Below, piece after piece: positions 2,842-52,137 of a DNA stretch of 64,000 nt. The DNA comes from a candidate division WOR-3 bacterium (GTDB taxonomy: Bacteria; Hydrothermota; Hydrothermia; JBDRYB01). The stretch lies in the NCBI GenBank assembly GCA_049969615.1, contig JBMFOM010000001.1, positions 32,083 to 96,082 on the forward strand, read 5' to 3'. Both the position numbers and the translations under genes were made by a program. Within the stretch, counting starts at the first letter, position 1, and every line of letters starts with the position of its first letter. The notes under the pieces were generated by a model, which was not told the DNA's origin, ran no database searches, and was given only the letters and a program-made list of their open reading frames with translations.

Positions 2842-2843
2842 TA

Positions 2844-8607: not shown

Positions 8608-9480
8608 TCAACCCCATCTCACCACCTCCACCATCCCGAACCCCTGGGAGTTCTTTGAACCCAGGCCCGTGTCCAGGGCAATCTTCAGGAGCTCTGGCGG
8701 GCCAGAGAGCTCGTATAACCCGTTCCAGGCCTTGATGACCGTCCCCTTGAACTTGAGAACTTTTTCGTCCCTGGCGCCAACCCTCAGGGGTTTCACGAGC
8801 AGGCACCAATTCTCCTCTGGCTTCTGGCCATAAGCGGCTTCGTATTTCTTAAGGAGGTTCTCGGAGATAAGCCTTGGGAATTCCTTTTCAAGGGGTGAAT
8901 AGTAGTAGGTCTTTTTACGGCCTTCGGCGTCGTAAAGGGTACTGTATGTGGTGATGGGCGAGATGGCCCTGACCACCATCCACTCGGCCTTTGGTAAAAA
9001 CAGCACCTCAACGCCATCCACCACGCAGGGGTTGTGCCCAACTAACAGCGATTTCTCGCGAACCAGGTTCAGAACCAGGGACTCCAGGAAATCCGTGTGG
9101 ACCGAGGCTACTGACCATTTGATTTGATCTGTAAAGTGTATTTGTTCCCCCTCAATCTGGAAGCGCCCCTGGAGTCTTGAGAAGGTGAAGAGCTTAAAAT
9201 GTCGCTTTTCTCTCGGAAAACCCTTCTCGTGAAGGTTATCGGCAATGGCTTTTTCGAGGTGACGGTAGACGATTCCCTGAAGAATATGGTTGTATTGGAT
9301 TGGAAGGGTTATCCTCTCCTTCTCTGGGGAGAAGGTTATCTTAACCTGCACGTGCACATGATAGGCTAAACAAATATCCCAGCGCAAGTAAAAAGCTAGG
9401 TTTCTAAGAGGGTGCCCCCGAAAAATCCCGCGCCGAGAGCATTCCCTAATGGTTCCCTTTAGATCTTGTCCGGTCTCCAC
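8608..9480 (-). CDS. cas6: Cas6 crRNA-processing endoribonuclease
   Basis: ORF of 290 aa with the C-terminal glycine-rich loop GLGSKNSQGFGMVEV that is typical of Cas6. The real start is probably an internal GTG near 9351-9357 (VQVKITF...), which would give a canonical Cas6 N-terminus. It is the first gene of the cas operon. Confidence 0.8.
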   Translation of the reverse strand: METGQDLKGTIRECSRRGIFRGHPLRNLAFYLRWDICLAYHVHVQVKITFSPEKERITLPIQYNHILQGIVYRHLEKAIADNLHEKGFPREKRHFKLFTFSRLQGRFQIEGEQIHFTDQIKWSVASVHTDFLESLVLNLVREKSLLVGHNPCVVDGVEVLFLPKAEWMVVRAISPITTYSTLYDAEGRKKTYYYSPLEKEFPRLISENLLKKYEAAYGQKPEENWCLLVKPLRVGARDEKVLKFKGTVIKAWNGLYELSGPPELLKIALDTGLGSKNSQGFGMVEVVRWG

Positions 9481-9492
9481 AAATACAAAAAT

Positions 9493-9521
9493 TTGATCCT
9501 GCGCGGGAAATGGGTTATAAT
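9493..9521 (+). promoter_or_regulatory. Sigma-70-type promoter TTGATC-N17-TATAAT, a member of the conserved GATCCTGCGC...GGGTTATAAT module
   Basis: The sequence ttgatcctgcgcgggaaatgggttataat lies upstream of the carboxypeptidase gene. The same extended motif recurs throughout the window. Confidence 0.6.
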
Positions 9522-9539
9522 TTATCCTGGAGGCATGCG

Positions 9540-13789: not shown

Positions 13790-13818
13790 ATGATCCTGCG
13801 CAGAAAGTGGGTTATAAT
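13790..13818 (+). promoter_or_regulatory. Conserved promoter module ATGATCCTGCGC-N-GGGTTATAAT, with a leaderless ATG 6 nt downstream
   Basis: The sequence atgatcctgcgcagaaagtgggttataat is followed by atcttt and then ATG at 13825. Confidence 0.6.
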
Positions 13819-13824
13819 ATCTTT

Positions 13825-16266
13825 ATGATGATACTCGGTTTTGTTCTTCTCGCCGGCGACATAGAGGAGGGCGTCGTGTTCCGCCAGCGCCACATGTTCT
13901 CCGAGGCGGAGCGAGCGCTCAGGAGGGCTGTTTATGTTGGGGAGGACACCCTCCGGGCAAAGGCCGAGCTCGCTATAACCTATTACAAGTGGAAGAAATA
14001 CCCAGAGGCCGCGGCAATTTTTTCCAGCATGCAGGAGCTCCTGAACGAGGAGATGTGGGGATATTACCTCGTTTGCCTTCAGGAATTTGATCCGGATAGA
14101 CTCTCGGGCCTGATTGATTCCTTGTCCGGTCAAAAGGATACCTTGGCCCTCCGGATTGCCCTCATGGGCATGTGGCTCAATGATAACAATTCCGGGGCAG
14201 ATTCTGTTGGGCTGAGGCTCGTTTCACTCAATCCAGCTTGTTCTGGTTCCACGCTCTTCGTGAAGGAGCTCGCGAACAACGCGCTCGCCCTGCCGGATTC
14301 CGAGCGGATAAAACGCATTTCCTCGTTTGAGGAACGGATATGGAGGTGTCCGGCCTTCTCCTGGCCTCTGAGAATCAAGGTGGTCTCCATGATCACCCTC
14401 GGTGACACTGCCAGCGCTATATCCGAGCTCAGAAAGTGGACGAAGAGAAAACCGGACGATCCGGAATTGCTCCTGGGCTCAGCGAGCCTGGTCGTGAATT
14501 TCGGCCTTGATGTTCCAGAAGCGGCCGCTTGGGCCAAGGATGCCTTTGTCCTTGCGGGCCAAAAACCCCTTGAGGGCGACGGTCTGGAATCCCCTCAGGA
14601 AAGGAGAATGAGGGCCTTGTTTTATCACGCCATACTCTCTGGCAAGCAGGATGACGAGCTCTGGAAGGATGTTCAGCTTCCTCCGGCGAACAATGACCTG
14701 GGCTTGGTCTCCCTGTATCAATACACGATGGGCCTGCTGGAGCGCGGCCGAGGCAACATGACCCAGGCGAAGGAACATTTCCTCCTTTCGGTTGTGGTTG
14801 GTTCTCCCAGGAACACCTGGCCGGAGAAATCTCTGAAGGCACTCGCTGACATAGGAGTCACCGATCCAGTTGCTGAGGTTAGGAGGATGTTGAATTACTC
14901 TGGCGTCGTTTTTTCTGACAGGACAGCGGATCTTGGTTTTCCTGCGGATATGAGGGCCACCCGCGTAGCGGTTGGTGACTATAACCGGGATGGGTGGGAT
15001 GACCTTCTCATTCAGGGGAGGTTGTTTGAGAACAGGAGGGGCAAGGGTTTCACCGAGGTCACTGACAAGGTTGGGCTTTCTGGGGTTTCCGGATCCGGCG
15101 CGCTGTTTCTGGATTACAACGCGGATGGCTGGGATGATATACTCATAGTTGGTGAGGCCGAGAGGCTCTTCAGGAACGAGAAGGCCAGGAGATTCAAGGA
15201 GGTAACATCAGACGCGGGCATATCCGATACCCTCCCGACAGAGGGCGCGTCCGGGTTTGACCTTAACGGAGATGGGTGGCCCGAGATATACCTTGCCAAC
15301 TACGAGTCAGGCGGGCTGGGAAAGGGAACCCCTGATGTTCTCTGCTTGAACGAACGCGGGAGGTTCCAGCCCACCGAGATTGCCCCTGAAACCCTTTGCG
15401 GCAGGGGGGTTGCCCCTTGCGATTTTGACATGGATGGGGATATTGATCTGTATGTGGCTAATTACAGGCTCCAGAGGAACTTTCTCTATGTGAATCAGGC
15501 CGGTTTGCTCTCAGATTCGGCGTTTCAGTACGGGGTTGCGGGAAAGGACAGAAGGGATTGGTTCGGACACTCAATAGGCCCTGCCTGGGCAGATTACGAT
15601 AACGATGGGGATTTTGACCTCCTGGTCTGCAACCTGGCTCACCCAAGATACATAGATTTCTCCGAGAAGACGGTTTTATATCAGGCGACAGGAAACCGGG
15701 ACGCGCCCTTTCAGGATGTCCGCTCTGAGGTGGGCATAGCATATGACGAGTGCTGCTCCGAGCCGCTCTGGGGGGATTTTGACAACGATGGCGACCTTGA
15801 CCTTTTCATCACCTCCATATATGAGAAAGAGAGGAGCTACCTTTACCAGAACATGCTTTCCGAGACCGGCGAACCCCGTTTCCAAGATATGACATACCCT
15901 GCTGGCGCTCGCGTCCTGAACGGCTGGGGGACCGCGGCCCTGGATTTTGACCAGGACGGAGACCTGGATATCGCGGTTGGCTCCGGCTCAGGTTTCCGTT
16001 TTCTGGTCAACGAGACCAAGACCAACAACGCCTGGATAGAGATAGAGGGACTGCCGCCGGGCGCGGTCGTGAGGCTGGTGGCCGGGGATGCCCTGATGAC
16101 AAGGCAGGTTGAGTTCGCCAAGGGCACGACATCACAGAGCTCGCCCGTCCTACATTTTGGACTCGGCTCCTGGCGTGGCGAGGTGGCAATTGGGGTCTCC
16201 TATCTGGGCAAGAGGAAGACCATAAAGACCAGGGACTTGAACCGCCGGATAAAGTTGAGGATATAG
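13825..16266 (+). CDS. TPR-like N-terminal region, FG-GAP/VCBS repeats and a C-terminal ASPIC/UnbV-like domain (CRTAC1-like)
   Basis: The ORF track starts at 13807 (MGYN artefact). At least seven D-x-D/N-x-D-G-x-x-D repeats are present (DYNRDGWDDLL, DYNADGWDDIL, DLNGDGWPEIY, DFDMDGDIDLY, DYDNDGDFDLL, DFDNDGDLDLF, DFDQDGDLDIA). The C-terminus is WIEIEG...VSYLGKRKT. Confidence 0.65.
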   Translation: MMILGFVLLAGDIEEGVVFRQRHMFSEAERALRRAVYVGEDTLRAKAELAITYYKWKKYPEAAAIFSSMQELLNEEMWGYYLVCLQEFDPDRLSGLIDSLSGQKDTLALRIALMGMWLNDNNSGADSVGLRLVSLNPACSGSTLFVKELANNALALPDSERIKRISSFEERIWRCPAFSWPLRIKVVSMITLGDTASAISELRKWTKRKPDDPELLLGSASLVVNFGLDVPEAAAWAKDAFVLAGQKPLEGDGLESPQERRMRALFYHAILSGKQDDELWKDVQLPPANNDLGLVSLYQYTMGLLERGRGNMTQAKEHFLLSVVVGSPRNTWPEKSLKALADIGVTDPVAEVRRMLNYSGVVFSDRTADLGFPADMRATRVAVGDYNRDGWDDLLIQGRLFENRRGKGFTEVTDKVGLSGVSGSGALFLDYNADGWDDILIVGEAERLFRNEKARRFKEVTSDAGISDTLPTEGASGFDLNGDGWPEIYLANYESGGLGKGTPDVLCLNERGRFQPTEIAPETLCGRGVAPCDFDMDGDIDLYVANYRLQRNFLYVNQAGLLSDSAFQYGVAGKDRRDWFGHSIGPAWADYDNDGDFDLLVCNLAHPRYIDFSEKTVLYQATGNRDAPFQDVRSEVGIAYDECCSEPLWGDFDNDGDLDLFITSIYEKERSYLYQNMLSETGEPRFQDMTYPAGARVLNGWGTAALDFDQDGDLDIAVGSGSGFRFLVNETKTNNAWIEIEGLPPGAVVRLVAGDALMTRQVEFAKGTTSQSSPVLHFGLGSWRGEVAIGVSYLGKRKTIKTRDLNRRIKLRI

Positions 16267-16271
16267 CGCTT

Positions 16272-17390
16272 ATGCGGGTCCTGCTCCTTGCGGATGCCTC
16301 CTCATTTCACACCCTTAAGTGGTTCCGCGCCTACAGGGCTCGCGGCGCCGATGTCCTTCTGGTTAGCCTTGAGCCTCCGCGAGAGGAGCTCTCGGATGTT
16401 TGCGTTTTCCTTAACCCTCCCGTGGCCTCGCGGCCATTCCATTATATTTTAGCCACCGGCAGGATAAGGGCGTTAGCCTCAGAGTTCAGGCCGGACATCC
16501 TGAACGCTCACATGGCAACTGGATACGGCCTCTTGGCCGCGTTGTCCTCCAGGAAAGCGAGGCTGGTCGTCTCCCTCTGGGGGCCGGATGTGCTTGAGAG
16601 CCCCAGAAGAGGACCTCTGCACCGCGCGGCCCTCCGGTTCGTCTTCCGTAAGGCTCATCTCCTTCAGACCGATGCCCGCGTTATGGACAGGATTCTGGCC
16701 GAGGATTTCGGCGTCCCCCGCGAGAAGATGTTTTTCATGCCATATGGCCTTTCTCCCGAGCTCCTGGAAACGCCCCTTCCGGATTTTAGGCCCGGCCCCC
16801 CATGGAAAATAATCAGCCACAGGAAACTTGAACCCCTGTATTCACCTTTCACCGTGCTTGAGGCTTTATCGCGTTTGAAGGCCACGGGCCACGATTTCAC
16901 CATGACCTTTGCCTCTGGCGGTTCCCTTGAACAAGCCATCAGGGACAGCATGGCGCGACTGGGAATTCCTGGCGAGGTTACAGGGTGGCTACCCGAACGG
17001 GAACTGCACGGTCGCATCGCTGGCTCACACATATTCATCTCTGCCTCGCTCTCAGACTCAACCCCTGTTTCTTTGCTTGAGGCCATGGCCCTCGGCGTTT
17101 TCCCGGTCGTGTCCGATTTACCCGCAAAGGGCGAATGGGTCGTTGATGGCTTGAACGGGTTCCTCTTTAACCCAACATGCCCACAGGATCTGGCGAATAA
17201 GCTCAAGGCATGCTTTGATAACCCCCGGATCATTGTCAGGGCCCGAGAAATTAACAAGGCCATGGTTCGTGAGCGGGCTGACTGGGAGAGGAATTTTGAT
17301 CGTTTCCTTGAGACGCTGGAAAGCCTGCCACCAGAGCCTCTTACGCTTTCAAAACCAACGGGAGTCCTGCCGTGGAGCTACCTGAGATGA
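16272..17390 (+). CDS. Glycosyltransferase, GT4 family
   Basis: The C-terminal LEAMALGVFPVVSDLPAKGEWVVDGLNGFLF is the GT4 E-x7-E region. The ORF starts 6 nt after the upstream gene. Confidence 0.75.
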   Translation: MRVLLLADASSFHTLKWFRAYRARGADVLLVSLEPPREELSDVCVFLNPPVASRPFHYILATGRIRALASEFRPDILNAHMATGYGLLAALSSRKARLVVSLWGPDVLESPRRGPLHRAALRFVFRKAHLLQTDARVMDRILAEDFGVPREKMFFMPYGLSPELLETPLPDFRPGPPWKIISHRKLEPLYSPFTVLEALSRLKATGHDFTMTFASGGSLEQAIRDSMARLGIPGEVTGWLPERELHGRIAGSHIFISASLSDSTPVSLLEAMALGVFPVVSDLPAKGEWVVDGLNGFLFNPTCPQDLANKLKACFDNPRIIVRAREINKAMVRERADWERNFDRFLETLESLPPEPLTLSKPTGVLPWSYLR

Positions 17391-18526
17391 AGGTAATGGC
17401 CTTGACCCTCGCGAAAAGGCATTGGGTAACCGGGATATGGACATTTCTTGATATGACGAGGAAAGCGCTTGAGGCAGTCGGGATTGAGTATCGCGTCCCG
17501 GATCACTGGTTGAACCACAGACAGCCCAGGTGGCCGCTACGATCTATGGTCAGAGTTGTTTCCTGGCTCGCGGGAACACCTTATGAGATCAATGTCCGCA
17601 GGTGGTTGATCGGCCCTGCGCTTTCAGGAATAGCGAGGCGAGAGAGCCGCTTCTATAACCCGGATGTCCTGCACATCCAGGGGAGTCTCGCGGCTGGCCT
17701 CATCCTGGAATTTCTCATGGAGGAGCGCGTCCCTTGGGTCCTGCACCTTCACAGCATAGATTCCGAGCTCATCAGGGCAGAAGGGCTTGCGCCGGATCAC
17801 CCCCTGGTCATCCTCTCGGATCACCTTCTCAGGAAGTCCATAGCCTCTGCACCGGTGGTCTGCGCCATTTCAAGGAATCTCGTTGACAGGATAGCCGCGC
17901 TCGGAATTGATGTGTCACGGATCAGGGTGGTTCACAATCCGATCATCATCCCCGAACTCCCTGAGCCACCTCCCTGCGGGCCTTATGTCTTTCTGCCCGC
18001 GAGACTGAGCCCAGAGAAGGGCGTTGACATAGCCATATCAGCCTGGAAAGGGGTTGAGAAGGAGTGCCCTGGCGTGAGCCTGATTATAGCGGGGACAGGC
18101 CCCCAGCAGGACGCCCTCATGGAGATGGTTCAGAGAGCCGGGGCGACCGGCATCAGGTTCCTCGGCAAACTATCGTGGGAAGAAACCCTCGCCTGGACAA
18201 AGCGCGCGCTCGTTCTGCTTCATCCCACGGTCCCCAGGGGTGGAACAAGGGAAGGGCTTGGCATGACGGTTTTGGAGGCAATGGCCCTGGGGGTTCCTGT
18301 CATATCAAGCGACAGGGGTGGTGCGGCAGAGGCCCTGGGTGATGCGGGAATATTTGTTCCTCCGCTGGATGCAGAGGCCATGGGCCAAGCGATCATCCGC
18401 CTCATCAGGGATGAGGCCCTCCGGCACGAGCTCAGCCACAGGGGGATTCAGAGGGCAGAGGAGATGTTCGGGCCGGACCTATATGCGAGCAAAATGGCCA
18501 GGGCATTCAAAGATGCTGTCGGATGA
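17372..18526 (+). CDS. Glycosyltransferase, GT4 family
   Basis: The LEAMALGVPVISSDRGGAAEALGDAGIFV motif is present. It overlaps the previous GT4 gene by 19 nt, so the two are in one operon. Confidence 0.75.
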   Translation: MELPEMKVMALTLAKRHWVTGIWTFLDMTRKALEAVGIEYRVPDHWLNHRQPRWPLRSMVRVVSWLAGTPYEINVRRWLIGPALSGIARRESRFYNPDVLHIQGSLAAGLILEFLMEERVPWVLHLHSIDSELIRAEGLAPDHPLVILSDHLLRKSIASAPVVCAISRNLVDRIAALGIDVSRIRVVHNPIIIPELPEPPPCGPYVFLPARLSPEKGVDIAISAWKGVEKECPGVSLIIAGTGPQQDALMEMVQRAGATGIRFLGKLSWEETLAWTKRALVLLHPTVPRGGTREGLGMTVLEAMALGVPVISSDRGGAAEALGDAGIFVPPLDAEAMGQAIIRLIRDEALRHELSHRGIQRAEEMFGPDLYASKMARAFKDAVG

Positions 18527-18595
18527 TCCCTCATCAGCAACCCAACCTTGACACCATAATTTGCTGGTCTGAGCGCGGTGAGGGCAAAAACAAGG

Positions 18596-18620
18596 CCCCG
18601 GCGCGCGGGAAACGCCGGGG
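18596..18620 (-). terminator. GC-rich hairpin (ccccggcg / cgccgggg) between convergent genes. It is followed on the minus strand by a T-rich tract.
   Basis: An 8-bp perfect stem with a 9-nt loop. The minus-strand reading continues ccttgtttttgccc. Confidence 0.5.
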
Positions 18621-18645
18621 CATTAAAAAGACCTCTGACGGGGGA

Positions 18646-19257
18646 TTATCTCACCATGAGAAGTTTCTCCACTTTCTTGAAGTCGCCAGCCTCATATCTC
18701 AGGATGTAGAGTCCCTGGGATACCTTGGTTCCTGACTCGGATTCGCCGTTCCAGATTACAGTGTAGTTGCCGGAGCCAGGTTTGCCCCTGGCGAGATTCT
18801 TGACCACGCGTCCAGAGAGGTCATAGACTGCCAGGGACACCTCGCGCTCATCCGCAACCCCATACTGAATAACGACCCTGCCTTTTGAGGGATTAGGGGA
18901 TGGGGGGGCCAGAAAAGTGGTGAACCTCTGGGCTCCGGGTTCCTCCCCTATCCCCTCATACAGGGGCTGGAGGTCAGGCCACCAGAAACCAAAGTAGCCC
19001 GTGTATGTCCCGCCACCAGCATAGCTTATCTGATCGCAGGGTTCGCCAATAGTGACCCCGAGATAAAAACCGCCAGGAGCCTGGAGTCCACCGATGGAGT
19101 CTGATGAGCCGCCCGATCCTATTATCACCCAGAAGTTAATGGTGTCCAGGGCCATGGGTCTGAATGGCTCGTAGCCGGGCTGGCTCATGAGCGCGGAGGG
19201 CCTCTGAACCTGGGATACACCAAAACTCAGGGCTATGAGCAGAAGTGGGCCTGGCAT
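18646..19257 (-). CDS. Small secreted protein with a T9SS C-terminal sorting domain
   Basis: It has the signal peptide MPGPLLLIALSFGVSQV. The C-terminus is VSLAVYDLSGRVVKNLARG...GLYILRYEAGDFKKVEKLLMVR. Confidence 0.6.
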   Translation of the reverse strand: MPGPLLLIALSFGVSQVQRPSALMSQPGYEPFRPMALDTINFWVIIGSGGSSDSIGGLQAPGGFYLGVTIGEPCDQISYAGGGTYTGYFGFWWPDLQPLYEGIGEEPGAQRFTTFLAPPSPNPSKGRVVIQYGVADEREVSLAVYDLSGRVVKNLARGKPGSGNYTVIWNGESESGTKVSQGLYILRYEAGDFKKVEKLLMVR

Positions 19258-39171: not shown

Positions 39172-40456
39172 CTCTCAAAACCTCCAGTATTTTCTCAAGT
39201 CCAACGAGCCTTGAACCCTTCAGCACCAGGATGTCGCCTGGCTTTAGAGTCTTCAAGAGGTGTTCCGCGGCCTCATATGGCCCTGGGAACCACAGGCCCC
39301 CGGAGGCCTCGGCCGTTGCTTTTGCCTCAGATCCGACGCAGATTATCGCTTTAAATCCCCTCCCTCCGGCAAACTCCCCAAGCTCGCGGTGCAGGGCAGG
39401 AGAGCTCTCGCCGAGCTCAAGCATCTCTCCCAGAACCAGGATAGTTCTCTCCGGAGCAGGCAGGGAGGCAACCAGGGCCTCTGCCGAATCCGGATTTGAA
39501 TTGTAGGCGTCGTTTATCACATCTATTTCGCCTATCCTTTCAATTCTCATGCGCATTCCTGTGGGCGTGTATGAGGCGAGGGCAGAACGGGCCGCGTCCG
39601 GATCAACCCCTAGTTCAAAGGCAACGGCCAGCGCGCAGGCCGCGTCGTGAGCGTATCCGGGATGGGGAACCGGAACACGGAATTCGTGGCCCAGGAAGGA
39701 GAAAGAGACCCCGTTCCCCTCCAGGCGGACATCCCTCGCGGAGAAACGGATCACCCGGACATCCGGCCTCAGGGTCGAGAGGAATATTTCCTCATGAAGG
39801 AGACCCTCTGGCAGGAACGCCAGGCCGCCCCTCTCAAGGCCTGAGAGGAGGGCAGACTTCTCCACTGCAACGCCGCGGGTGTCTCCAAAGGCCTCCAGGT
39901 GGCTTCTTCCTACGGCAGTTATCACGGCTATGTGGGGCCTGGCGAGGCCGGCAAGGGCCTTTATCTCTCCGGGGTGATTGGTCCCTATTTCAAGCACGAG
40001 GAAATCATCGTCATCAGAAGCCAGAATGGAGAGGGGAACCCCTATGTTGTTATTGAAGCTCCTGGGGCTTGCCGAAACCGAGAAACGGGCCGAAAGGATG
40101 AGGGAGAGCATGTCCTTTACAGCGGTCTTGCCAAATGAACCGGTTACGGCTATCACGCGGGAACCGAGCCGATTCCTGTGGAAGAAAGCGAGCCGGCTCA
40201 GGGCGGAAAGGGTCTCCTCAACGACTATGACGGGCCGGTCTTCTCCCTTAAAATATATGGGGACAACCGCGGCGGCCGCGCCCCGTGCGAAAGCGTCCGG
40301 AACGAACTCAACCCCATCCCTGGTGCCTCGGAGGGCAAAGAAGAGGTCGCCCCTCCGGACGGTCCGGCTATCAGCCGAAACGCCAGTAACAATGGCATCC
40401 GGGCCCCTGAGCTCGCCCATGAGGGCCTTCTCAATCTCAGCCAGCCTGTATCTCAT
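39161..40456 (-). CDS. murF: UDP-N-acetylmuramoyl-tripeptide--D-alanyl-D-alanine ligase
   Basis: A Mur ligase with the GSFGKT motif, positioned between murE and mraY. Confidence 0.85.
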   Translation of the reverse strand: MRYRLAEIEKALMGELRGPDAIVTGVSADSRTVRRGDLFFALRGTRDGVEFVPDAFARGAAAAVVPIYFKGEDRPVIVVEETLSALSRLAFFHRNRLGSRVIAVTGSFGKTAVKDMLSLILSARFSVSASPRSFNNNIGVPLSILASDDDDFLVLEIGTNHPGEIKALAGLARPHIAVITAVGRSHLEAFGDTRGVAVEKSALLSGLERGGLAFLPEGLLHEEIFLSTLRPDVRVIRFSARDVRLEGNGVSFSFLGHEFRVPVPHPGYAHDAACALAVAFELGVDPDAARSALASYTPTGMRMRIERIGEIDVINDAYNSNPDSAEALVASLPAPERTILVLGEMLELGESSPALHRELGEFAGGRGFKAIICVGSEAKATAEASGGLWFPGPYEAAEHLLKTLKPGDILVLKGSRLVGLEKILEVLRDAL

Positions 40457-41876
40457 TCAGAACCTCATCGGCCACTACCCTATCAGAGAAAGGCACCCGC
40501 GTGCCCTTTATTTCCATGTAATCCTCATGCCCTTTTCCAGCTATGAGGAGGACATCTCCGGGCGCTAGCCCGGATATGGCCTTCCTGATGGCCTCGCGCC
40601 GGTCCAGCACAACCAGAGGCGAGGTCTCCATGCCAGAGAGTATCTCGCGGATTATGTCCGCTGGCTCCTCGTCCCTGGGATTATCTGTTGTGAGAACCAC
40701 GATGTCCGCCTCCTGCTCCGCGACCCTGCCCATGAGGGGGCGTTTTCCCCTGTCCCTGTTGCCCCCGCAACCGAAAACCAAATGGAGCCTCCCGCGGGTA
40801 AGGAGCCTGGCGGCCTTCAGGGCACGGGAAAGCGCCTCCGGGGTGTGAGCGTAGTCAACTATAACGAGAAAATCCCTCGTTTTGCCGACCTTTTCAAAAC
40901 GGCCGGGTGGGCCCTTTGCTGTCCTGAGGGCTGAGGCGACATCCGAGAGCTCAAAACCGAGGCCAACGAGAACCGCGGTCGCGGCCCCCGCGTTGGCCGC
41001 GTTGTGCAGGCCGACTAGGGGAAGGTGAGTCCTGGCGAGCTGGCCAGCTGTCTCAATCTCAAGCGCGAGCCCGGCAGTGTCCGAGCTCAGGACCCTGACC
41101 ATGAGCTCACCCTTGCCATTCAAGCTAAAAAGAATAACCCTGGCCACGGTTTCCTCAATGAACCTGTGCGCCCAGGCGTCATCCGCGTTGACGGCCGCGA
41201 CGGCTGTAGGTGGAAGCATCCTGAAGAACTCAAGCTTTGCCTCAGCATAGGCCTCCTGGGTGCCGTGGTAATCCAGGTGATCCCGGCCCAGGTTGGTGAA
41301 AACGCCAGCGGAGAACTCAAGGCCAAGTATCCTCCTCTCCGCTACCCCGTGTGAGGAAACCTCCATGACTCCAAACCCCGCTCCCTCTTCTATGGCCCTA
41401 GCGAGGAGCCTCTGTATGTCAGGGGATTCTGGAGTCGTCCTCTCTGCTGGCCAGGATGATCTCGGGGTTGAATACTGAACAGTGGTCAGGAGGGCCGCCT
41501 GGTGGCCCATGGCGCGGAGAGCCGAGTGGACTATGAAGGCAGTGGTTGATTTTCCGGCTGTTCCGGTTATGCCTATGAGCCTCATTCGTCCGGAGGGATG
41601 GCCGAAGAACCTGTCAGAGAGAGTGGCCATGGCCTCGCGGGTATCAGGAGCAACAATCCGGGGAAGACGAGAATCAACCGGCTTGGCGGTCAGAAGGGCC
41701 GCGGCTCCGGCGCGCTCCGCGTCCGGGATAAAGTCATGCCCATCCGTGTTCCTGCCGACCAAAGCGCAATAGAGCGAACCGGGGATCACGTTCCTGGAAT
41801 CACAGGTTATGTCAGTTATCTCCGGGTTATCAGTCCCTTTGATAACGAATCCCTCTGCCAGCTCGCTTAGCCTCAT
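40437..41876 (-). CDS. murE: UDP-N-acetylmuramoyl-L-alanyl-D-glutamate--2,6-diaminopimelate ligase
   Basis: A Mur ligase with the GITGTAGKSTT motif. The start MRLSELAEGF abuts the ftsI stop. The ORF track's longer form begins at 41942. Confidence 0.85.
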   Translation of the reverse strand: MRLSELAEGFVIKGTDNPEITDITCDSRNVIPGSLYCALVGRNTDGHDFIPDAERAGAAALLTAKPVDSRLPRIVAPDTREAMATLSDRFFGHPSGRMRLIGITGTAGKSTTAFIVHSALRAMGHQAALLTTVQYSTPRSSWPAERTTPESPDIQRLLARAIEEGAGFGVMEVSSHGVAERRILGLEFSAGVFTNLGRDHLDYHGTQEAYAEAKLEFFRMLPPTAVAAVNADDAWAHRFIEETVARVILFSLNGKGELMVRVLSSDTAGLALEIETAGQLARTHLPLVGLHNAANAGAATAVLVGLGFELSDVASALRTAKGPPGRFEKVGKTRDFLVIVDYAHTPEALSRALKAARLLTRGRLHLVFGCGGNRDRGKRPLMGRVAEQEADIVVLTTDNPRDEEPADIIREILSGMETSPLVVLDRREAIRKAISGLAPGDVLLIAGKGHEDYMEIKGTRVPFSDRVVADEVLNEIQAG

Positions 41877-43477
41877 TTTCCTCCCATGGCCAAAAGGCCG
41901 TAGTCCCTGTTTATCAAGAAAAGGGCTATTTTCCTGAAACACGGTGCCGCGACATCCCCGCCATAGTGGGCGTTCTTCGGCTCATCAACAACGACATATA
42001 TCAGGTATTTTGGGGAATACGCCGGGAAAAACCCCACGAAGGAGGCTATGACCCTGGTCTGGCTGTAGCCGCCGGAAACCGTGTCCGGCTTCTGCGCGGT
42101 GCCGGTTTTGCCCGCTATCATCAGGCCGTCTATCATCGCTTTTCTGCCCGTTCCCTCCTTCACCACGGCTATCATCAATCCAATAAGGGTATCTGCTATG
42201 TCCGGCGAGAGAACCCTCCGGATGAGAATCCTCTGAGGGAACTCCCTGAACTCCTCGCCCGAGACCATCCTCTTTATGAGCCTAGGCGCGAGGAGCTCCC
42301 CTCGGTTGGCTATCGCACAGAAGGCCATCGCCATGCCTATTCCGTTGATCATTATGCCCTGACCCATGCCCGCGTTCGCGGTTCTTATCTTCCGCCATCT
42401 GGAGGGCTTCTCGGGCCTCTTTGACCATTCTCCGGGAAGACAAATCCCCGTTGGCGTGAAAAACCCGAATCTCATGAGAACCTCGTATATTTTTTCCGGG
42501 CCGAGCTGGAGGCCAAGATAAGCCATGCTCCTGTTGGAGGAGTGAACGAGCGCGTCGCGCCAGGTGAGACCACCGGGAAACTGCTCAACATCCCCGATGA
42601 GGTGCTTTCCGACCTGGAGCTTTCCCCGGCCAATGGGGACGGAATCCGAGAGGTTAATGAGGCCGAGCTCAAGCGCCTTTGCCACGATAAACGGCTTCAG
42701 GGTTGAACCGGGCTCAAAGGGATCGGTTAGCGCGTATATCCTGTCTGAGGGCGGATACTGTGTAAGGGCGAGGATCTCTCCGGTCTGAGGGTCAACCGCT
42801 ATGACGAATCCCTTGTCCGCGCCGGTCTGCTCAACTGTTTGTTTTATTGCTGAGTAAGCGAAATCCTCAAGGTCAGAATCTATGGTCAAATAAACATCAT
42901 AGCCGGGCTCCGGAAGCCTCTTCTCCGCGTCGGGAAATGCTATGAGTTCGCCATCAGCGGTTCTCAGAAACATCTCGTAGCCGGGCTTGCCGGATAGGTA
43001 ATCCTCCAGAACCATCTCCGCGCCGGAAAGCCCAACGCTATCATAGCCGACCTTTCCCACTATGCCCCTGGTGGCTTCACCCAGGGGACAAAAGCGCAGG
43101 CTACCTGGCCTGAGGAAGATGCCGCTCACATCGGAGAGCTTCTCCGCGTCCTCTGGCGAAAGGCCCCTTGCCAGCAGGACAGCCTTCTTGTCCCCCATGG
43201 AAACGGGCGAAACGCCGAGCCTGACGAGGGCACGCTTTGGATCCGAGACGGGGCCTGACTGGTAGAGGTTGAAACCCAGGCTGTTGCCGGCGAGAAGCGC
43301 GCCGCGCCTGTCATATATTATGCCCCTCTCGCCGGGGAGCTCCACCCGGGCCAGGTACTGCCTCTTGCCCTGCTCCTTATATTTACTGGCGCCCAGCCAC
43401 TGGAGCCATGCCAAGCGCAAGGCTATCGCGGCTACCCAGAGAAGGAGCAGGATGACCAGCGTTCTTGTCCTCGTCAA
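41873..43477 (-). CDS. ftsI: Penicillin-binding protein 3 (FtsI) transpeptidase
   Basis: An N-terminal TM helix (LVILLLLWVAAIALRL) and an SxxK-type active site (STLKPF) are present. It lies in dcw context. Confidence 0.85.
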   Translation of the reverse strand: MTRTRTLVILLLLWVAAIALRLAWLQWLGASKYKEQGKRQYLARVELPGERGIIYDRRGALLAGNSLGFNLYQSGPVSDPKRALVRLGVSPVSMGDKKAVLLARGLSPEDAEKLSDVSGIFLRPGSLRFCPLGEATRGIVGKVGYDSVGLSGAEMVLEDYLSGKPGYEMFLRTADGELIAFPDAEKRLPEPGYDVYLTIDSDLEDFAYSAIKQTVEQTGADKGFVIAVDPQTGEILALTQYPPSDRIYALTDPFEPGSTLKPFIVAKALELGLINLSDSVPIGRGKLQVGKHLIGDVEQFPGGLTWRDALVHSSNRSMAYLGLQLGPEKIYEVLMRFGFFTPTGICLPGEWSKRPEKPSRWRKIRTANAGMGQGIMINGIGMAMAFCAIANRGELLAPRLIKRMVSGEEFREFPQRILIRRVLSPDIADTLIGLMIAVVKEGTGRKAMIDGLMIAGKTGTAQKPDTVSGGYSQTRVIASFVGFFPAYSPKYLIYVVVDEPKNAHYGGDVAAPCFRKIALFLINRDYGLLAMGGK

Positions 43478-47984: not shown

Positions 47985-48830
47985 TTAACCATTTTTCACC
48001 CTTTCCCACCCGGCCGCAAAAATACAGAGTGCCCTCTGAGCCTTGTTCGCCCCAGCCCGGCATGACACCCATAGCTTTCTGAGCCTTCCGGGCCTCCGTC
48101 GTCCCCTGAGGATATCCTGGTCCCGCGCGAGGAAAAACCTGGCGAGGCAGGACTCAATGCCAATAGCCCGAGCGAGCGCAAATGCCTTTCCGAGGTCAAC
48201 TATGGGCAATATCCTCTCCGCGTCAATCCTCCAGATCAGCCTCGGGCCAAAGGTAAATGAGCTCAGAGCGGCGTGCGCGGCGATGATGATGAGCTCATCC
48301 TCAGGGGAGAGAAACCCCTCACTGGAACGGTTCCAGAGCTTGCCGGGTGGAATAAAGAGCTCTCTGGCAACCGGATGCGCGTGCAGATCAACATTTATCC
48401 TCCCCCTGTGCATGACAACGCTTTTAGGGCTGGATATTACCTCGGAGAAACCCTCCCCTGAGAGTATCCGGACAAAACTGGAGATATCGCGAGGCCTGAC
48501 CAGGATGTCTATGTCCAGGAGGGGCCTTTCCTGGGGAAGGTAGAGGCCGCGGGCTATGAGGGACGCGCCCTTCATGGGCAGAAAATCAGGCGCAACCTCC
48601 CTCAGAAACGACATGATAGCCATGTGCGCGAGGGTATTTGAGGCCTGGCTGGAGTAATCCGGAAAGAGGGTTGACCTGGCCTCCGGGCAGTCTATGACAG
48701 GATAAACCAGGCCGAGAATACCATGCTGGAGTGCTAGAACACGAAAACCATGCCAGTCGTGAACCTCAGCAGGCCTTCCCCTCAGGAACGAGAGGAGCGC
48801 GTCCGCGAGCTCGGTAGGGTTATGCTCCAA
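47985..48830 (-). CDS. Uncharacterised nucleotidyltransferase-family protein, the kind found in lasso-peptide / HprK-related kinase neighbourhoods
   Basis: A 281-aa protein. It is the last gene of the operon and overlaps the kinase gene by 11 nt. The family assignment is by pattern recognition only. Confidence 0.5.
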   Translation of the reverse strand: MEHNPTELADALLSFLRGRPAEVHDWHGFRVLALQHGILGLVYPVIDCPEARSTLFPDYSSQASNTLAHMAIMSFLREVAPDFLPMKGASLIARGLYLPQERPLLDIDILVRPRDISSFVRILSGEGFSEVISSPKSVVMHRGRINVDLHAHPVARELFIPPGKLWNRSSEGFLSPEDELIIIAAHAALSSFTFGPRLIWRIDAERILPIVDLGKAFALARAIGIESCLARFFLARDQDILRGRRRPGRLRKLWVSCRAGANKAQRALCIFAAGWERVKNG

Positions 48831-49554
48831 TACCGGCTATCTCCTTGATGGCCCGCAGTCCTTCTTTCTTGCCCGGAAAACGGAGGGCAAAAATCCCCTG
48901 GTCGCTCAGACGAGCAACGAGCGCAAGGCCAGGCTTTCCAGTGGCCCGAAGGTTGAAGTTCTCCCGAAGCAGTTCCAGGGCCGCGTCGCGGCCACTGATC
49001 CTCTCAAGCCTAGTCCGGGAGCCAGGGGCATACCTGAGCGAGATTATCTGAAATAGTCCCGCGGGTCCGGAAATGCTGTCCGGCAAAAATGACATGGGCA
49101 TGGAGGGAAAGACGAATTTGCCGTCAAGGCTTACCGGCGCGCCATCCTCGGCCATGAACCCGTATCCTTCATCGCAGAGGGCCATCGCGAGGGTTGTCTT
49201 TCCGGAACCCCTTGGGCCGATCATCAGCAGGGCGCCCGGCTCCATTCTAACGGCCGAGGCGTGGAGCACCAGGGCATCAGACATCTCCGGAGCGAGAATT
49301 CTCCTGGTCCAATAGGAAAGGACATTGATGAAATCCAGCTCAGCGGGAAGCTCACTGAAGAAACAGACATTGCCCTCTGTCTCAAAGAAATCCTCCTGAT
49401 TCCTCAACCCGACCGAGAGAACGAGATCCGGCGGGCCCGGGTCCCGGAACCTTGATATGAAACCAGAGAAGAGTTCAGCAAACTCTGGGGAGTGATCCCA
49501 GGCCACTTTCTTTCCGAAGTGGAGGGTAATTAGAGCCTTGGGCGAGTCAACCAT
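48820..49554 (-). CDS. HPr kinase C-terminal-domain-like (HprK-related) serine kinase
   Basis: A P-loop (LMIGPRGSGKTTLAMALCDEGYGFMAEDG) matches the HprK C-domain pattern G-x-SG-x-GKS/T ... L-x-ADD. There is no N-terminal HprK domain. Confidence 0.7.
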   Translation of the reverse strand: MVDSPKALITLHFGKKVAWDHSPEFAELFSGFISRFRDPGPPDLVLSVGLRNQEDFFETEGNVCFFSELPAELDFINVLSYWTRRILAPEMSDALVLHASAVRMEPGALLMIGPRGSGKTTLAMALCDEGYGFMAEDGAPVSLDGKFVFPSMPMSFLPDSISGPAGLFQIISLRYAPGSRTRLERISGRDAALELLRENFNLRATGKPGLALVARLSDQGIFALRFPGKKEGLRAIKEIAGIGA

Positions 49555-49556
49555 TC

Positions 49557-49799
49557 TCAGGCGAGAAGGCCCATCTGAGCCAGCTCCTCAATGAAGGCCG
49601 CGGCGTCCGCGAGGGCCTGATCCTCCGCTATGCCATATTCCCCGACCAGGAGCCTGGCTATCTCGGATTCGGTGAGCTCCGCGTTTTCCCAGACCAAGGC
49701 CGCTGTTTCGTTCAGGACAAATGACCGGTCTTCCTCCGGATCATAGATGATGAGACCATCCTCTATGCGTTGCGTCAACAATCCCTCTTTTCTTCTCAT
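49557..49799 (-). CDS. PqqD-family peptide-binding chaperone (RiPP recognition element-like), 80 aa
   Basis: MRRKEGLLTQRIEDGLIIYDPEEDRSFVLNETAALVWENAELTESEIARLL... This follows the characteristic PqqD pattern (x-dG-x-hh-d-x4-YxLN-x-tA-x-hW). Confidence 0.7.
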   Translation of the reverse strand: MRRKEGLLTQRIEDGLIIYDPEEDRSFVLNETAALVWENAELTESEIARLLVGEYGIAEDQALADAAAFIEELAQMGLLA

Positions 49800-50401
49800 T
49801 TGGTCATCAGGAGGTAAATGCTGAAAAACATCAGTCCGGTTGTGACGAGGTTCAGGACAAGGTTGAAGTTTTCCATCGTGCAGAGACGAAAAGCCTTTGG
49901 AACAACTATGACCTGGCCCGGTAAGACCGGCTCATCCGCCTGTTTGCCAGAGAGTATCGCGCCCAGGTCAACGCGTCTGGTCTCCCATTTGCCGCCGACC
50001 CTTGTCCTCACTATGACTGCGGATAACCTGGCATCCGGCGCGGCGCCTCCGGCGGCCTGGAGCGCGTCGGCTATGGTCATCCCCTTCCTGAACTGAACAG
50101 GGCCAGGGATATTGACCCTGCCGGTCACCATTACTTGCGGGGGGATCAGGTTCTCAACCGAAAGCAGTATCAGGGGGTCTTTGTAATATGGCGCGAGGTG
50201 GGCGCTCAGGGTGTCCTTGAACTCGTCAAAGCTCAGTCCTCCGGCCCGGACCTTCCCGGTGAGCCTGAGATATAGATAACCGGAATCATCAATCGCTGAT
50301 ATCTCGGAGAAACCAGAGGTTCCTGGGATCTCAACCTTAAGGATGTCCCCAGGCCTCAGGGTATCCGAAGAAACAGCCAAAAGCACAATATAAGCGAGCA
50401 C
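49796..50401 (-). CDS. Polysaccharide export protein (Wza/BexD-like, Poly_export plus SLBB) with a C-terminal TM helix
   Basis: The N-terminus LRPGDILKVEIPGTSGFS and the later VMVTGRVNIPGPVQFRKGMTIADALQAAGG segment are the Poly_export and SLBB signatures. It overlaps the pqqD-like gene by 4 nt. Confidence 0.7.
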   Translation of the reverse strand: MLAYIVLLAVSSDTLRPGDILKVEIPGTSGFSEISAIDDSGYLYLRLTGKVRAGGLSFDEFKDTLSAHLAPYYKDPLILLSVENLIPPQVMVTGRVNIPGPVQFRKGMTIADALQAAGGAAPDARLSAVIVRTRVGGKWETRRVDLGAILSGKQADEPVLPGQVIVVPKAFRLCTMENFNLVLNLVTTGLMFFSIYLLMTK

Positions 50402-50457
50402 GGGAAAAGTTTAATGGTTGTCCGGAGGCTCACGCAACAAAAACTCGGAACGAAAAG

Positions 50458-52077
50458 CTATTTCAGGCCGACCGGCGCCTTCGCTGTCGCGGTTCCGGAT
50501 GATGTTGAGAGGACGATGTAATATATGCCCCGGGAAAGTCCCTCAGTTGAGAGAGTCACCCTGTGATAGCCAGCGGGCACCTCATCGCCAAAGGCCTCCT
50601 TGACCAGCCTGCCAGAGGGGTCATAGAGCGCTACCGAGACGTAGCCCTCGCGGGGAACCGAGAACAGCACCTCAAACCTGCCCCTGTGAGGAACCGCAAC
50701 CAGGGAGAGCCCCGGCGGGGCTGGCATGTCCTCGTATATTTCCAGCGGCCTTATGCAGACCCACCTGTAGAACATATCCGCGTCCGTGATGGGAAGGTCC
50801 ATATCTGACCAGACAACGCAAGCACAGGTGTCCCTGGCGGCCGTGGATGGCAGGATTGACCAGTGCCGGGTGTTGTTGGAGGCGTTGACCGCGGGCCAGG
50901 ACCAGTTCTGGCCCCAGTCAAAGGAATACTGATACATGATCTCGCCGTTGAACGTAGGTGTGCTCCTGAACCACCAGAAGATGTGGACATACCGGCCCGT
51001 CGGGTCGCAGGCTACAGAAGGAGCCGCGGCCCAGCCTCCCCCGTGGGCCTCCGCGGAGTCTATGGTCATGGCTGAGCCGGAGCCAGAGGGAATCCAGGTC
51101 GCGCCGTTGTCGGTGGAGCGCTTGAACCTTATGTAATAGGCGTCATCCCAGGCGGCGTATACATAGTTGCCGGCCGCGGCTATGCTCGGATACCCGTAGA
51201 AGGATATGAGGCTCGTTGTGGCGAAGAGGGTGGTCGCGGATGACCAGTTCGCGCCGGAGTTGGTTGAACGGATGTATAGCTTGTCTATGGAAGTCAGACC
51301 CCACCTCAGGAAAATGATGTGGACATAGGGCCCGGACGCCGCTATGTCGGGCCACATAATCGGGAATGGCAGGAGGCTTATCTCATATATCCTCTGTTGT
51401 TCCGCGAGCCAGGTCGCGCCGTTGTCCGTTGACCGCCTCAGGGTTATGTCCATGTAGGAATCGTGATCGGAGTTATCAATCCATATCGCATAAACATTGT
51501 TTCCGGCCGCGGCGATCACAGGGCCATAGGCAACAGAATCAATGTCATGCAGGAGAACGGGTGAGGACCAGTTCACCCCAGCGTTGGTGCTCCTGGCGTA
51601 GTATATCCAGTAGTGATGCCTCTCAACCGTGTCCGTGTCCCCGCCGCCCAGGTTTATGTAGTATGTCCAGACCGAGTCTATGTCCCATATCGCGTGGACA
51701 TAGTTTCCATTAGCGCAAAGTGATGTCTGGCTGGGTCCCATGCCTATCTTAAAGGTGGTGTCGCCGTGTGGCGGTGGATCCGAGGGATCGGAAACCGTCA
51801 TCAGGGTAACAACCGAGCCCCAAGTGGAGCCAAAGTCAGTGGAGCGCCGATATACCACCGAGCCGCCAGAATAATAATCCGTCCGGTTGTTCTCGGACCA
51901 GAGCACATGGACGATATCTCCGACCGCGGCCGAGTTGTGCTGGGTTCCATGGCAGGATATAGAGCAGTTGTTCGGGGTGTTGGATATGTTGGTCACCGGG
52001 CCCCAGTTCTGGGCCAGAACGGCCGGAGCGAGAACGAGAAGCCCGGCCCAGAGCTTGATCAGATCATGTCTTTTCAT
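50458..52077 (-). CDS. BNR/Asp-box repeat (sialidase-like) secreted protein with a T9SS C-terminal sorting domain
   Basis: The real start is MKRHDLIKLWAGLLVLAPAVLAQ (signal peptide), preceded by an AGGAGG RBS. Six S-x-D-x-G-x-T-W repeats are present (RSTDFGSTW, RSTNAGVNW, RSTDNGATW twice, RSTNSGANW, SFDWGQNW). The C-terminus is VSVALYDPSGRLVKEAFG...IYYIVLSTSSG. The 5' extension in the ORF track is a translation of repeat copy D. Confidence 0.75.
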   Translation of the reverse strand: MKRHDLIKLWAGLLVLAPAVLAQNWGPVTNISNTPNNCSISCHGTQHNSAAVGDIVHVLWSENNRTDYYSGGSVVYRRSTDFGSTWGSVVTLMTVSDPSDPPPHGDTTFKIGMGPSQTSLCANGNYVHAIWDIDSVWTYYINLGGGDTDTVERHHYWIYYARSTNAGVNWSSPVLLHDIDSVAYGPVIAAAGNNVYAIWIDNSDHDSYMDITLRRSTDNGATWLAEQQRIYEISLLPFPIMWPDIAASGPYVHIIFLRWGLTSIDKLYIRSTNSGANWSSATTLFATTSLISFYGYPSIAAAGNYVYAAWDDAYYIRFKRSTDNGATWIPSGSGSAMTIDSAEAHGGGWAAAPSVACDPTGRYVHIFWWFRSTPTFNGEIMYQYSFDWGQNWSWPAVNASNNTRHWSILPSTAARDTCACVVWSDMDLPITDADMFYRWVCIRPLEIYEDMPAPPGLSLVAVPHRGRFEVLFSVPREGYVSVALYDPSGRLVKEAFGDEVPAGYHRVTLSTEGLSRGIYYIVLSTSSGTATAKAPVGLK

Positions 52078-52137
52078 GAATGCACCTCCTTTCACAACGG
52101 GGGAAATTATAGTGCATCCGGCACCGCGGTTCAAGCA

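Follow-up and report, generated by a model that had tools for sequence, protein, structure and literature searches.

A PqqD, HprK-like kinase and nucleotidyltransferase cassette beside envelope protein genes in candidate division WOR-3: a possible RRE-guided modification module

Why would a bacterium keep the tailoring enzymes of a lasso peptide at a locus where the lasso machinery itself is not found? The question is raised by a 64-kb stretch of DNA from a candidate division WOR-3 bacterium (contig JBMFOM010000001.1 of assembly GCA_049969615.1; the whole stretch is called the window here, and positions given without a locus name refer to it), in which five open reading frames (ORFs) lie head to tail on the minus strand, encoding a BNR beta-propeller protein, a Wza-like member of the OPX family (outer-membrane polysaccharide export), a PqqD-family protein, an HprK-like kinase and a nucleotidyltransferase (NTase). 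To our knowledge, HprK-like kinases and PF14907-type NTases have been characterised only as tailoring enzymes inside lasso-peptide clusters. Here strong selection maintains such a kinase and NTase, together with a PqqD protein, in a streamlined genome region of housekeeping genes, without lasso machinery and joined to an envelope protein. We propose, with a probability of roughly 0.45, that the cassette may encode a kinase guided by a RiPP recognition element (RRE; RiPP, ribosomally synthesised and post-translationally modified peptide) and a phosphate-extending transferase, which would act on a polypeptide and be tied to the envelope through the OPX protein.

A five-gene block conserved in seven lineages

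All five genes exist where the initial annotation of this DNA had placed them, down to the ATG of the BNR gene at 52077, which stands directly after an AGGAGG motif. The features of the block are listed in their order of reading.

52106..52134, minus strand: sigma-70-like promoter candidate TTGAAC-17-TATAAT, 5′ of the BNR gene (consensus scan, 10/12 matches)
50458..52077, minus strand: BNR/Asp-box beta-propeller protein, 539 aa, with typical Sec signal peptide and probable C-terminal sorting domain of the type IX secretion system (T9SS)
50399..50420, minus strand: invariant motif CCATTAAACTTT[T/C]CCCGTG, whose last three letters are the GTG start codon of the Wza-like gene
49796..50401, minus strand: mini OPX (Wza-like) protein, 201 aa, GTG start, with Poly_export, one SLBB and a C-terminal hydrophobic helix
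49557..49799, minus strand: PqqD-family (RRE-type) putative peptide-binding protein, 80 aa (Pfam PqqD)
48820..49554, minus strand: HprK-like P-loop putative Ser/Thr (peptide) kinase, 244 aa (HprK_rel_A match, motif)
47985..48830, minus strand: NTP_transf_5 (Pol-beta superfamily) protein of nucleotidyltransferase fold, 281 aa, TTG start (PF14907)

Context look-ups and a metagenome scan recovered the full five-gene order in seven lineages, namely the window, L001/L030, L003/L004, L006/L031, L027/L028, L034/L035 and L036 (L-numbered loci are homologous or comparison contigs from other genomes or metagenomes), and shorter contigs each carry a partial copy consistent with it. That seven distinct lineages share one gene order goes far beyond what chance would give. 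The block sits in two flank contexts: the majority has fabD on one side and nudix-gltX on the other (in the window fabD is divergent and the Nudix gene convergent), and on the L003-L005 contigs a V-type ATPase operon lies upstream of the block and a lipoprotein-folP-dacA set follows downstream. Orthologs are 75-84% (BNR), 70-81% (OPX), 66-70% (kinase), 59-73% (PqqD) and 58-67% (NTase) identical to the window proteins, and mean pairwise dN/dS comes to 0.12 for BNR, 0.14 for OPX, 0.16 for PqqD and 0.18 for both kinase and NTase, ratios that are approximate because dS is near saturation. All five genes are under purifying selection, the BNR protein being the most conserved and constrained of the block.

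The PqqD, kinase and NTase genes, which had been taken for conserved neighbours, are indeed so in the seven lineages and also on contig L032 from a deeper relative, where they keep the same overlapping order at 47%, 44% and 52% identity, respectively; this contig is too short to reveal the genes upstream of the trio. The clade as a whole is narrow. Close homologs of the kinase, which is 100% identical to the protein ACP5QG_00315 of an NCBI metagenome-assembled genome, fall into no more than eight clusters at 90% identity, each of them from WOR-3-type sources, and an exhaustive HMMER search of 1.84 billion representatives left the clade at one 50%-identity cluster and one deeper relative (P0129), within a wider HprK-like superfamily of 6,858 representatives at E <= 1e-10. 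In the NCBI taxonomy, the related 'Candidatus Hydrothermia' records now stand under Caldifarciminota.

The genes of the cassette are tightly packed. The OPX and PqqD genes share a 4-nt ATGA overlap in the window and in all seven lineages, so that the close coupling of the Wza-like gene to the trio, as first described, holds throughout. The same kind of overlap had been ascribed to the trio's own junctions, where it does not apply: in the window a 2-nt gap separates PqqD and kinase (0-8 nt of overlap in the other lineages), and the kinase and NTase genes overlap by 11 nt, the NTase starting at TTG. Across lineages the junctions other than OPX/PqqD vary between a gap of 2 nt and an overlap of 20 nt.

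Co-transcription with the BNR gene, which the initial annotation had assumed, is doubtful in view of the junction between BNR and OPX. Just 3′ of the BNR stop, a GC-rich hairpin with a T-run occurs in three lineages (L001/L030, L027/L028 and L034; in L034 it reads GGGCCCG-GTTTT-CGGGCCC-TTTTGTTG), and no terminator-like hairpin was seen at this junction in the window, L006 or L031. Ahead of the Wza-like start lies an 18-19-nt motif that is invariant in nine of the nine loci with the junction read, against an identity of just ~70% for the proteins; it has no second copy in the window, where 0.02 matches are expected, and a TT[G/A]TTGC box precedes it by ~17-19 nt. The OPX start has no Shine-Dalgarno sequence.

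L001 ~9100-9130, L027 ~6370-6395 and L034 8371-8397: terminator-like hairpins between the BNR stop and the Wza-like start
Window, L001 ~9136-9157, L003, L006, L027, L028, L030, L031 and L034 8415-8433: loci with the motif CCATTAAACTTT[T/C]CCCGTG

Since hairpins occur in three lineages and the motif is invariant, the four downstream genes probably have expression signals of their own, and read-through from BNR into OPX-PqqD-kinase-NTase is probably partial at most. As to its role, the motif may serve as a promoter, as an operator or in the control of translation. An RNA element at this place was rejected, as RNAalifold gave no compensatory pairs or covariation and Rfam no credible match; a sigma-54 reading of the TTGC box was likewise dropped, since by eye L001 alone fits it and the window and L006 have no GG element. 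Sigma-70-like sites are as numerous across the region as in shuffled sequence, and the BNR promoter candidate is to be read as a pattern match only. A 25-aa alternative-frame ORF over the Wza-like start (50356-50433) looked like a signal peptide and suggested a frameshift or hidden peptide; it was discarded because stop codons interrupt it in other lineages.

The borders of the block vary in a few lineages. An insertion of ~800 nt between the NTase and nudix genes (L025 1659-2334, L027 ~8900-9730, L028, L036 6510-6776) contains two genes on the opposite strand, one for an 88-aa protein and one for a 141-aa protein that has a DTGA retropepsin-like motif; the pair appears degraded in L027. Between fabD and BNR, L034 has an extra 178-aa ORF (6033-6569), not present in the window, whose product has a linker rich in Thr and Pro and resembles a T9SS sorting domain at its C-terminus.

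The cassette proteins and their families

Profile searches upheld the assignments of the PqqD protein, the HprK-like kinase and the NTase at superfamily level. The 80-aa protein falls inside the Pfam family PqqD (PF05402, 51.3 bits against a gathering score of 23.4), and its NCBIfam matches all stay under cutoff: lasso_PqqD_Strm is the best (35.8 bits, cutoff 70), with lasso_PqqD_Bac at 16.2 bits (cutoff 80), PqqD_rel_X (TIGR04353) at 23.8 bits (cutoff 35) and ScmD (TIGR04248) at 23.9 bits (E 3.5e-5, cutoff 100). The kinase has HprK_rel_A (TIGR04352) as its best NCBIfam match, at E 4.3e-14 and 52.3 bits against a cutoff of 200, and aligns to this model in register (residues 78-151 on model positions 80-153); its deeper relative P0129 reaches 59.8 bits. 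It is not a canonical bifunctional HprK, as had been anticipated, with 16.9 bits to TIGR00679 (cutoff 240), 13 bits to Pfam Hpr_kinase_C (cutoff 33) and no N-terminal HprK domain by sequence.

Its catalytic motifs are intact. The family keeps H98, the P-loop G113-x-x-G116-x-G118-K119-T120 and the acidic pair E136-D137, in a spacing identical to that of the BsfK residues H148-G163-G166-G168-K169-S170-D186-D187, which matter by mutagenesis (PMC10368454); the first acidic residue is E, not D. The NTase matches PF14907 (NTP_transf_5) at 60 bits against a cutoff of 31.2, and its Pol-beta signature G88-x-S90, D106-x-D108 and D148 is invariant in eight sequences. With these motifs kept across lineages, both enzymes look active. 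The AlphaFold2 (AF2) model of the kinase, built on a shallow family alignment, has a pLDDT of 65, and Foldseek against the PDB returned HprK/P or PEPCK structures for all top matches, weakly (E >= 2e-3, TM 0.17-0.40); the NTase model (pLDDT 67) matched only Pol-beta-type NTases (ANT(2'')-Ia, LnuA, TUTases), again weakly, and a sequence search with the NTase gave no detectable solved structure. Because the alignments are shallow the models are modest, and the fold searches are therefore indicative only.

The nearest relatives of the kinase outside WOR-3 (P0130-P0149) are longer, 350-390 aa, and have an N-terminal extension with weak PqqD signals (E 1e-5 to 8e-5 with a local hidden Markov model, 3e-4 with hhalign and 0.002-0.04 with NCBIfam; no PqqD match in Pfam), so that they may be PqqD-kinase fusions. 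One of them (L017 9425-10579) neighbours an NTP_transf_5 gene, a glutamine cyclotransferase and an S49 peptidase.

The Wza-like protein had been called an exporter. Its OPX domains are above cutoff (Pfam Poly_export 40.4 bits, cutoff 28; SLBB 42.6 bits, cutoff 27), its best NCBIfam matches are exopolysaccharide exporters (EpsE, PEP-CTERM export, EpsY) and its closest solved relatives are 9n9a, a 186-aa polysaccharide export protein, then Wza and PslD. Since it combines Poly_export and SLBB and has no Wza_C Pfam match at E <= 0.1, it belongs to Class 3 by the published domain rule (PMC9603273). The export role, in contrast, had been assumed, and the ends of the protein do not speak for it: the ~10 N-terminal residues are hydrophobic, with no charged n-region or lipobox, and the C-terminal helix is anchor-like. 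In detail, a Met and ~9 hydrophobic residues, without a basic residue (K/R) and without Cys, lead into a conserved [SP][SQ]DTL[RG]PGD, and an in-frame TAA four codons 5′ of the GTG, kept in all lineages, fixes this N-terminus and rules out a longer form; other secreted proteins of WOR-3 genomes have ordinary signal peptides. At the other end, a 23-residue helix comes after an invariant KAFRLCTM[E/D]NFN; its polar stripe is narrow, and with a Kyte-Doolittle mean of 1.98 over 19 residues it is, by this measure, as hydrophobic as an inner-membrane anchor. Two topologies would fit: in one the protein is a minimal Wza with its helix in the outer membrane, in the other an inner-membrane protein anchored by its C-terminal tail, with the OPX domains on the cytoplasmic side together with PqqD, kinase and NTase. 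Genes for a Wzc-type polysaccharide co-polymerase (PCP), Wzx/Wzy or ABC systems, glycosyltransferases or a Wzp porin are absent from the block and from the genes common to both flank types.

The BNR protein, a hypothetical protein in the annotation of the NCBI pipeline PGAP, shows six visible Asp-boxes and a sub-threshold BNR_2 match (27.3 bits, cutoff 31.4). As a sialidase it is a poor likeness: only Asp-box segments align to 4bbw and 8du5 (E 0.002-0.02), and no sialidase homology was found beyond them. Its description as T9SS cargo fares better, in that a sorting-domain match recurs, like the BNR match, in four of the four BNR orthologs (best E 1.3e-3), although the scores remain under the curated cutoffs (Por_Secre_tail 18.9-19.1 bits against 27, TIGR04183 21.2 against 23); the protein is probably T9SS-secreted. 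It ends in K or R, and its signal-peptide region lacks the conservation expected of a leader. At the mature N-terminus an TPNNCSISCHGTQHN segment (51949-51966, residues 38-43) is invariant in all orthologs; C-S-I-S-C-H is reminiscent of a heme-c attachment motif in a CX3CH variant, or else of a site for a metal or a disulfide. The gene adjoins the four-gene set in all seven lineages and in both flank types, and this synteny across one rearrangement is modest evidence that the two are functionally linked.

Elsewhere in the window, the housekeeping surroundings of the cassette include gltX, the dcw cluster with an intact murE (40437-41942), deoC and bamA. A second small T9SS sorting-domain protein (18646-19257, minus strand), with FlgD_ig and Por_Secre_tail above cutoff (28.5 bits), adjoins an FG-GAP/ASPIC protein and two GT4 glycosyltransferases (13807-18526), and this group at 13807-19257 is the sole glycan-related cluster of the window, ~30 kb from the cassette. 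A six-ORF run on the minus strand at 1849-8553 resembles a CRISPR-associated (cas) cluster, by eye, from size and order only. A PADLOC scan for defence systems gave only P-loop noise, and an anti-phage defence role was rejected on that account.

Proposed chemistry, candidate substrates and rival explanations

The initial annotation had noted that lasso cyclase, B2 protease and precursor are missing, and searches agreed. Probes for cyclase and B2 protease came from an Azospirillum plasmid, a Halopiger plasmid and one metagenomic locus. The Azospirillum and Halopiger probes for the Asn-synthetase-type cyclase, run with phmmer on the window and the seven WOR-3 loci (within 10 kb), gave no match at E <= 1, and the three probes for the transglutaminase-like B2 protease found none in the 64-kb window or the WOR-3 loci. 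Among the ORFs of 18-110 aa outside large genes at the seven loci, the only conserved ones are PqqD, an FtsL-like protein and frame shadows, and thus no precursor was recognised. The comparison set of 18 loci with distant HprK-like kinases looks different: PqqD occurs in 13/18, NTP_transf_5 in 11/18, the B2 protease in 11/18 and the cyclase in 9/18, and an OPX or BNR-family gene in none of the 18, which makes the WOR-3 partner set unusual for the HprK-like kinase family. On three Acidobacteria-like contigs (L021 6563-10827, L022 6791-10821 and one JGI contig), a cassette of PqqD, B2, a 57-aa ORF, HprK-like kinase and ABC transporter lies between rpsL-rpsG and fusA-tuf, a cyclase being absent within 8 kb; ribosomal protein genes are also described at the flanks of the bsf lasso cluster of Bradymonas (PMC10368454).

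What such enzymes can do is known from lasso pathways, where the tailoring role that the initial annotation gave to HprK-like kinases and this NTase type is published. The kinases phosphorylate the precursor, the site being the C-terminal Ser in paeninodin-type systems and Ser3 in BsfA (PMC8498205; PMC10368454), and in pseudomycoidin the phosphate receives one or two hexoses from the PF14907-type N enzyme (PMC8498205). The PqqD-type RRE BsfB1 greatly speeds BsfK, which does not accept the core peptide without its leader (PMC10368454), and this pair is a direct precedent for a PqqD protein serving an HprK-like kinase.

By analogy with these enzymes, the 80-aa PqqD protein would bind a linear segment of a ribosomally made polypeptide and present it to the kinase, which would move a phosphate from ATP onto a Ser/Thr hydroxyl. 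The NTP_transf_5 enzyme would then add a sugar, or a group derived from a nucleotide, to this phosphate and so complete a decoration linked by a phosphodiester, as the lasso K and N enzymes do. The WOR-3 module would have lost, or never had, the lasso cyclase, the leader protease and an adjacent precursor. The mini OPX membrane protein, translationally coupled to the enzymes, might export the product or anchor the enzymes at the membrane, and the highly conserved, probably T9SS-secreted BNR propeller next door is a candidate client or functional partner. The recurrent partnership of these families in the distant loci, and the trio of L032 in the same order, are consistent with this proposal. 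As to the substrate, a small peptide encoded elsewhere is a tentative choice, at less than even odds; the BNR protein is a doubtful candidate, a glycan or lipid-linked glycan a rather unlikely one, and the OPX protein itself or some other molecule are both improbable.

Several observations weigh against an RRE-guided modification of a polypeptide. No substrate was found, no small ORF is conserved in or around the block, and no protein of the cassette ends in Ser, the site of the first characterised lasso kinases (PMC8498205). Function is transferred here by distant homology, as PqqD, kinase and NTase fail the curated family cutoffs, and the confidence of the AF2 models (pLDDT 65 and 67) is modest and their fold matches weak (E >= 2e-3). 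Compartments do not match either: the enzymes are cytoplasmic, the BNR protein carries a Sec signal peptide, an OPX domain is normally periplasmic, and the block encodes no inner-membrane transporter. The BNR linkage amounts to one rearrangement, with terminator-like hairpins splitting off the BNR gene in three lineages, and the OPX domain points to glycans over peptides.

The last point leads to another reading, in which kinase and NTase phosphorylate and then cap or extend a polysaccharide or lipid-linked glycan at the cytoplasmic face, comparable to the terminal phosphate capping of some O-antigen pathways; the OPX protein would export the polymer across the outer membrane, the BNR protein would be a trimming glycoside hydrolase and PqqD a structural adaptor only. 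It draws on the OPX domains, the exopolysaccharide and OPX relatives of that protein, the BNR propeller as a common glycosidase fold, and two annotated lasso-type kinase/NTase loci that adjoin glycosyltransferases or a flippase, and the characterised N enzyme does transfer hexoses (PMC8498205). Nevertheless, glycosyltransferase, flippase, polymerase and Wzc-type co-polymerase are all missing from the block and from what the two flank types have in common, the nearest GT4 genes of the window being ~30 kb off; PqqD domains bind peptides, and an RRE stimulates such a kinase on a peptide (PMC10368454); the BNR protein lacks sialidase similarity past its Asp-boxes, and the OPX protein a normal signal peptide or lipobox. 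Decoration and export of a glycan seems rather unlikely to us. Maturation of the BNR protein, which we rate as unlikely, would have PqqD recognise the BNR pre-protein and the kinase and NTase decorate it or build its post-T9SS anchor, with the OPX protein aiding surface display. The adjacency in seven lineages and both flank types fits, as does the standing of BNR as the most conserved member (75-84% identity, dN/dS 0.12); moreover, a strongly signalled structural gene (AGGAGG, 10/12 promoter match), a partial terminator and accessory genes follow one another in a layout that may be typical of structural-gene-plus-modification operons. Against this stand the Sec export of BNR away from cytoplasmic enzymes, a signal-peptide region that is not leader-like in its conservation, a C-terminal K or R instead of Ser, and synteny support from a single rearrangement, the divergent contig L032 being too short to tell whether BNR travels along with the trio.

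Two further possibilities detach the enzymes from their neighbours. HprK/P phosphorylates a folded protein at a serine, and the kinase, probably of the same HprK/PEPCK fold class and set among housekeeping genes, might act on a folded signalling protein in envelope or carbon metabolism, with the NTase as a nucleotidylating regulator and the neighbours only loosely connected. Such a regulatory switch is quite improbable given that the kinase is far from canonical HprK (16.9 bits against 240 for TIGR00679), that no HPr or phosphotransferase system gene was seen in the window or the orthologous flanks, and that its constant partners, PqqD and NTP_transf_5, are those of peptide-tailoring clusters. 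The cassette might also be what is left of a decaying lasso cluster, its cyclase, protease and precursor lost, its genes non-functional or fading and OPX and BNR unrelated to it; in most distant loci these types of kinase, PqqD and NTase do stand together with a B2 protease and a cyclase of the Asn-synthetase type, neither of which was found at the WOR-3 loci. The selection and synteny data essentially exclude this: the genes are intact in seven lineages at dN/dS 0.12-0.18 with invariant catalytic residues, the ATGA coupling to OPX is kept in every lineage, and the trio persists at 44-52% identity in the deeper relative.

Returning to RRE-guided modification of a polypeptide, a bolder version, to which we give little credence, would make the cassette independent of any precursor: the RRE protein would steer the enzymes to an envelope protein of full size (BNR or the mini OPX protein), which would be phosphorylated and then glycosylated or nucleotidylated through the phosphate, with the OPX protein as a cytoplasm-facing, C-tail-anchored inner-membrane scaffold. 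We know of no description of such a topology and role for the OPX family. If it is true, chemistry guided by an RRE would not stop at natural-product peptides but would, in a deep-branching phylum, also serve the maturation of cell-surface proteins. The atypical mini OPX protein also tests the assumption that Poly_export/SLBB proteins are always periplasmic exporters. More generally, if the substrate is a surface protein or a glycan, elements of RiPP recognition would have been reused for cell-envelope biogenesis, and the cassette would offer the first functional handle on the widely annotated neighbourhoods of PqqD, HprK-like kinase and nucleotidyltransferase. The chemistry itself is probably a re-use of known enzymes, and the biological reach is limited, unless the principle generalises, because the clade is narrow.

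Comparison with known systems

The kinase shares with HprK/P the P-loop fold class that its modest model suggests, together with the conserved His, P-loop and acidic pair; it differs in its scores (16.9 against 240 for TIGR00679, 13 against 33 for Hpr_kinase_C), in having no N-terminal HprK domain and in the lack of an HPr partner in the surroundings seen. The OPX protein agrees with Class-3 proteins in its Poly_export-SLBB architecture, at 201 aa below the Class-3 median of 256 aa (PMC9603273) and close to its best solved relative of 186 aa. It lacks, however, the lipobox or canonical signal peptide present in ~80% of Class 3 (PMC9603273), has an extra invariant, very hydrophobic C-terminal helix, and its gene has no Wzc/PCP, Wzp porin or glycan-synthesis neighbours and is instead coupled translationally to a PqqD gene.

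Among RiPP-type cassettes, SynChlorMet likewise combines an HprK-like protein, ScmC (PF27840/TIGR04249), with the PqqD-like ScmD (TIGR04248), and distant relatives of the WOR-3 kinase bear the ScmC Pfam domain. The WOR-3 kinases themselves, in contrast, have no precomputed ScmC or Hpr_kinase_C domain, the ScmD score is 23.9 against a cutoff of 100, and no radical-SAM maturases stand beside the cassette.

The initial annotation had assigned the trio to the HprK-related kinase A (HPr-rel-A) system of a TIGR04352 kinase and a TIGR04353 PqqD peptide chaperone. HprK_rel_A is the top NCBIfam match of the kinase, PqqD_rel_X is among the PqqD matches, and, going only by the description in that annotation, the system also pairs kinase and PqqD without an obligatory lasso cyclase and is marked by the kinase, PqqD and NTase neighbourhood, an order that the seven WOR-3 lineages and L032 do show. 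This membership was not sustained, as the WOR-3 proteins miss both curated cutoffs widely (52 against 200 and 23.8 against 35), and the HprK_rel_A match is not diagnostic, because lasso-associated and other HprK-like kinases score equally weakly. Searching for an HprK_rel_A locus to compare returned, among the genome-scan matches listed, only distant kinases, all under cutoff; ten ~280-aa representatives reached 125 bits at most, and tblastn of the best of these against plasmids gave no match. We found no literature on the TIGRFAM names of this system, on the PqqD/Wza/kinase combination or on T9SS in WOR-3.

The closest parallel is with the lasso K/N/B1 set of paeninodin, pseudomycoidin and the Bradymonas bsf cluster, with annotated examples on Azospirillum and Halopiger plasmids, which has the same PqqD-type RRE, HprK-like kinase and PF14907 NTase and the same H-G-G-G-K-S/T-D/E-D kinase motif at identical spacing. 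The WOR-3 cassette differs from it in having no cyclase, B2 protease, ABC exporter or precursor, in its OPX-like and BNR/T9SS partners (0/18 distant loci), in a shorter kinase (244 aa against about 300-320 aa) and in the very low similarity of the proteins (E 3e-4 between the WOR-3 NTase and the Azospirillum N protein). With the curated cutoffs failed and weak HprK_rel_A matches being generic for HprK-like kinases next to PqqD genes, we do not file the cassette under HPr-rel-A, lasso or SynChlorMet; judged by its profile matches it is a divergent relative of all three, and by analogy its mode of action is probably nearest to that of the K/N/B1 tailoring set, though the genomic setting is new and the functional one probably so.

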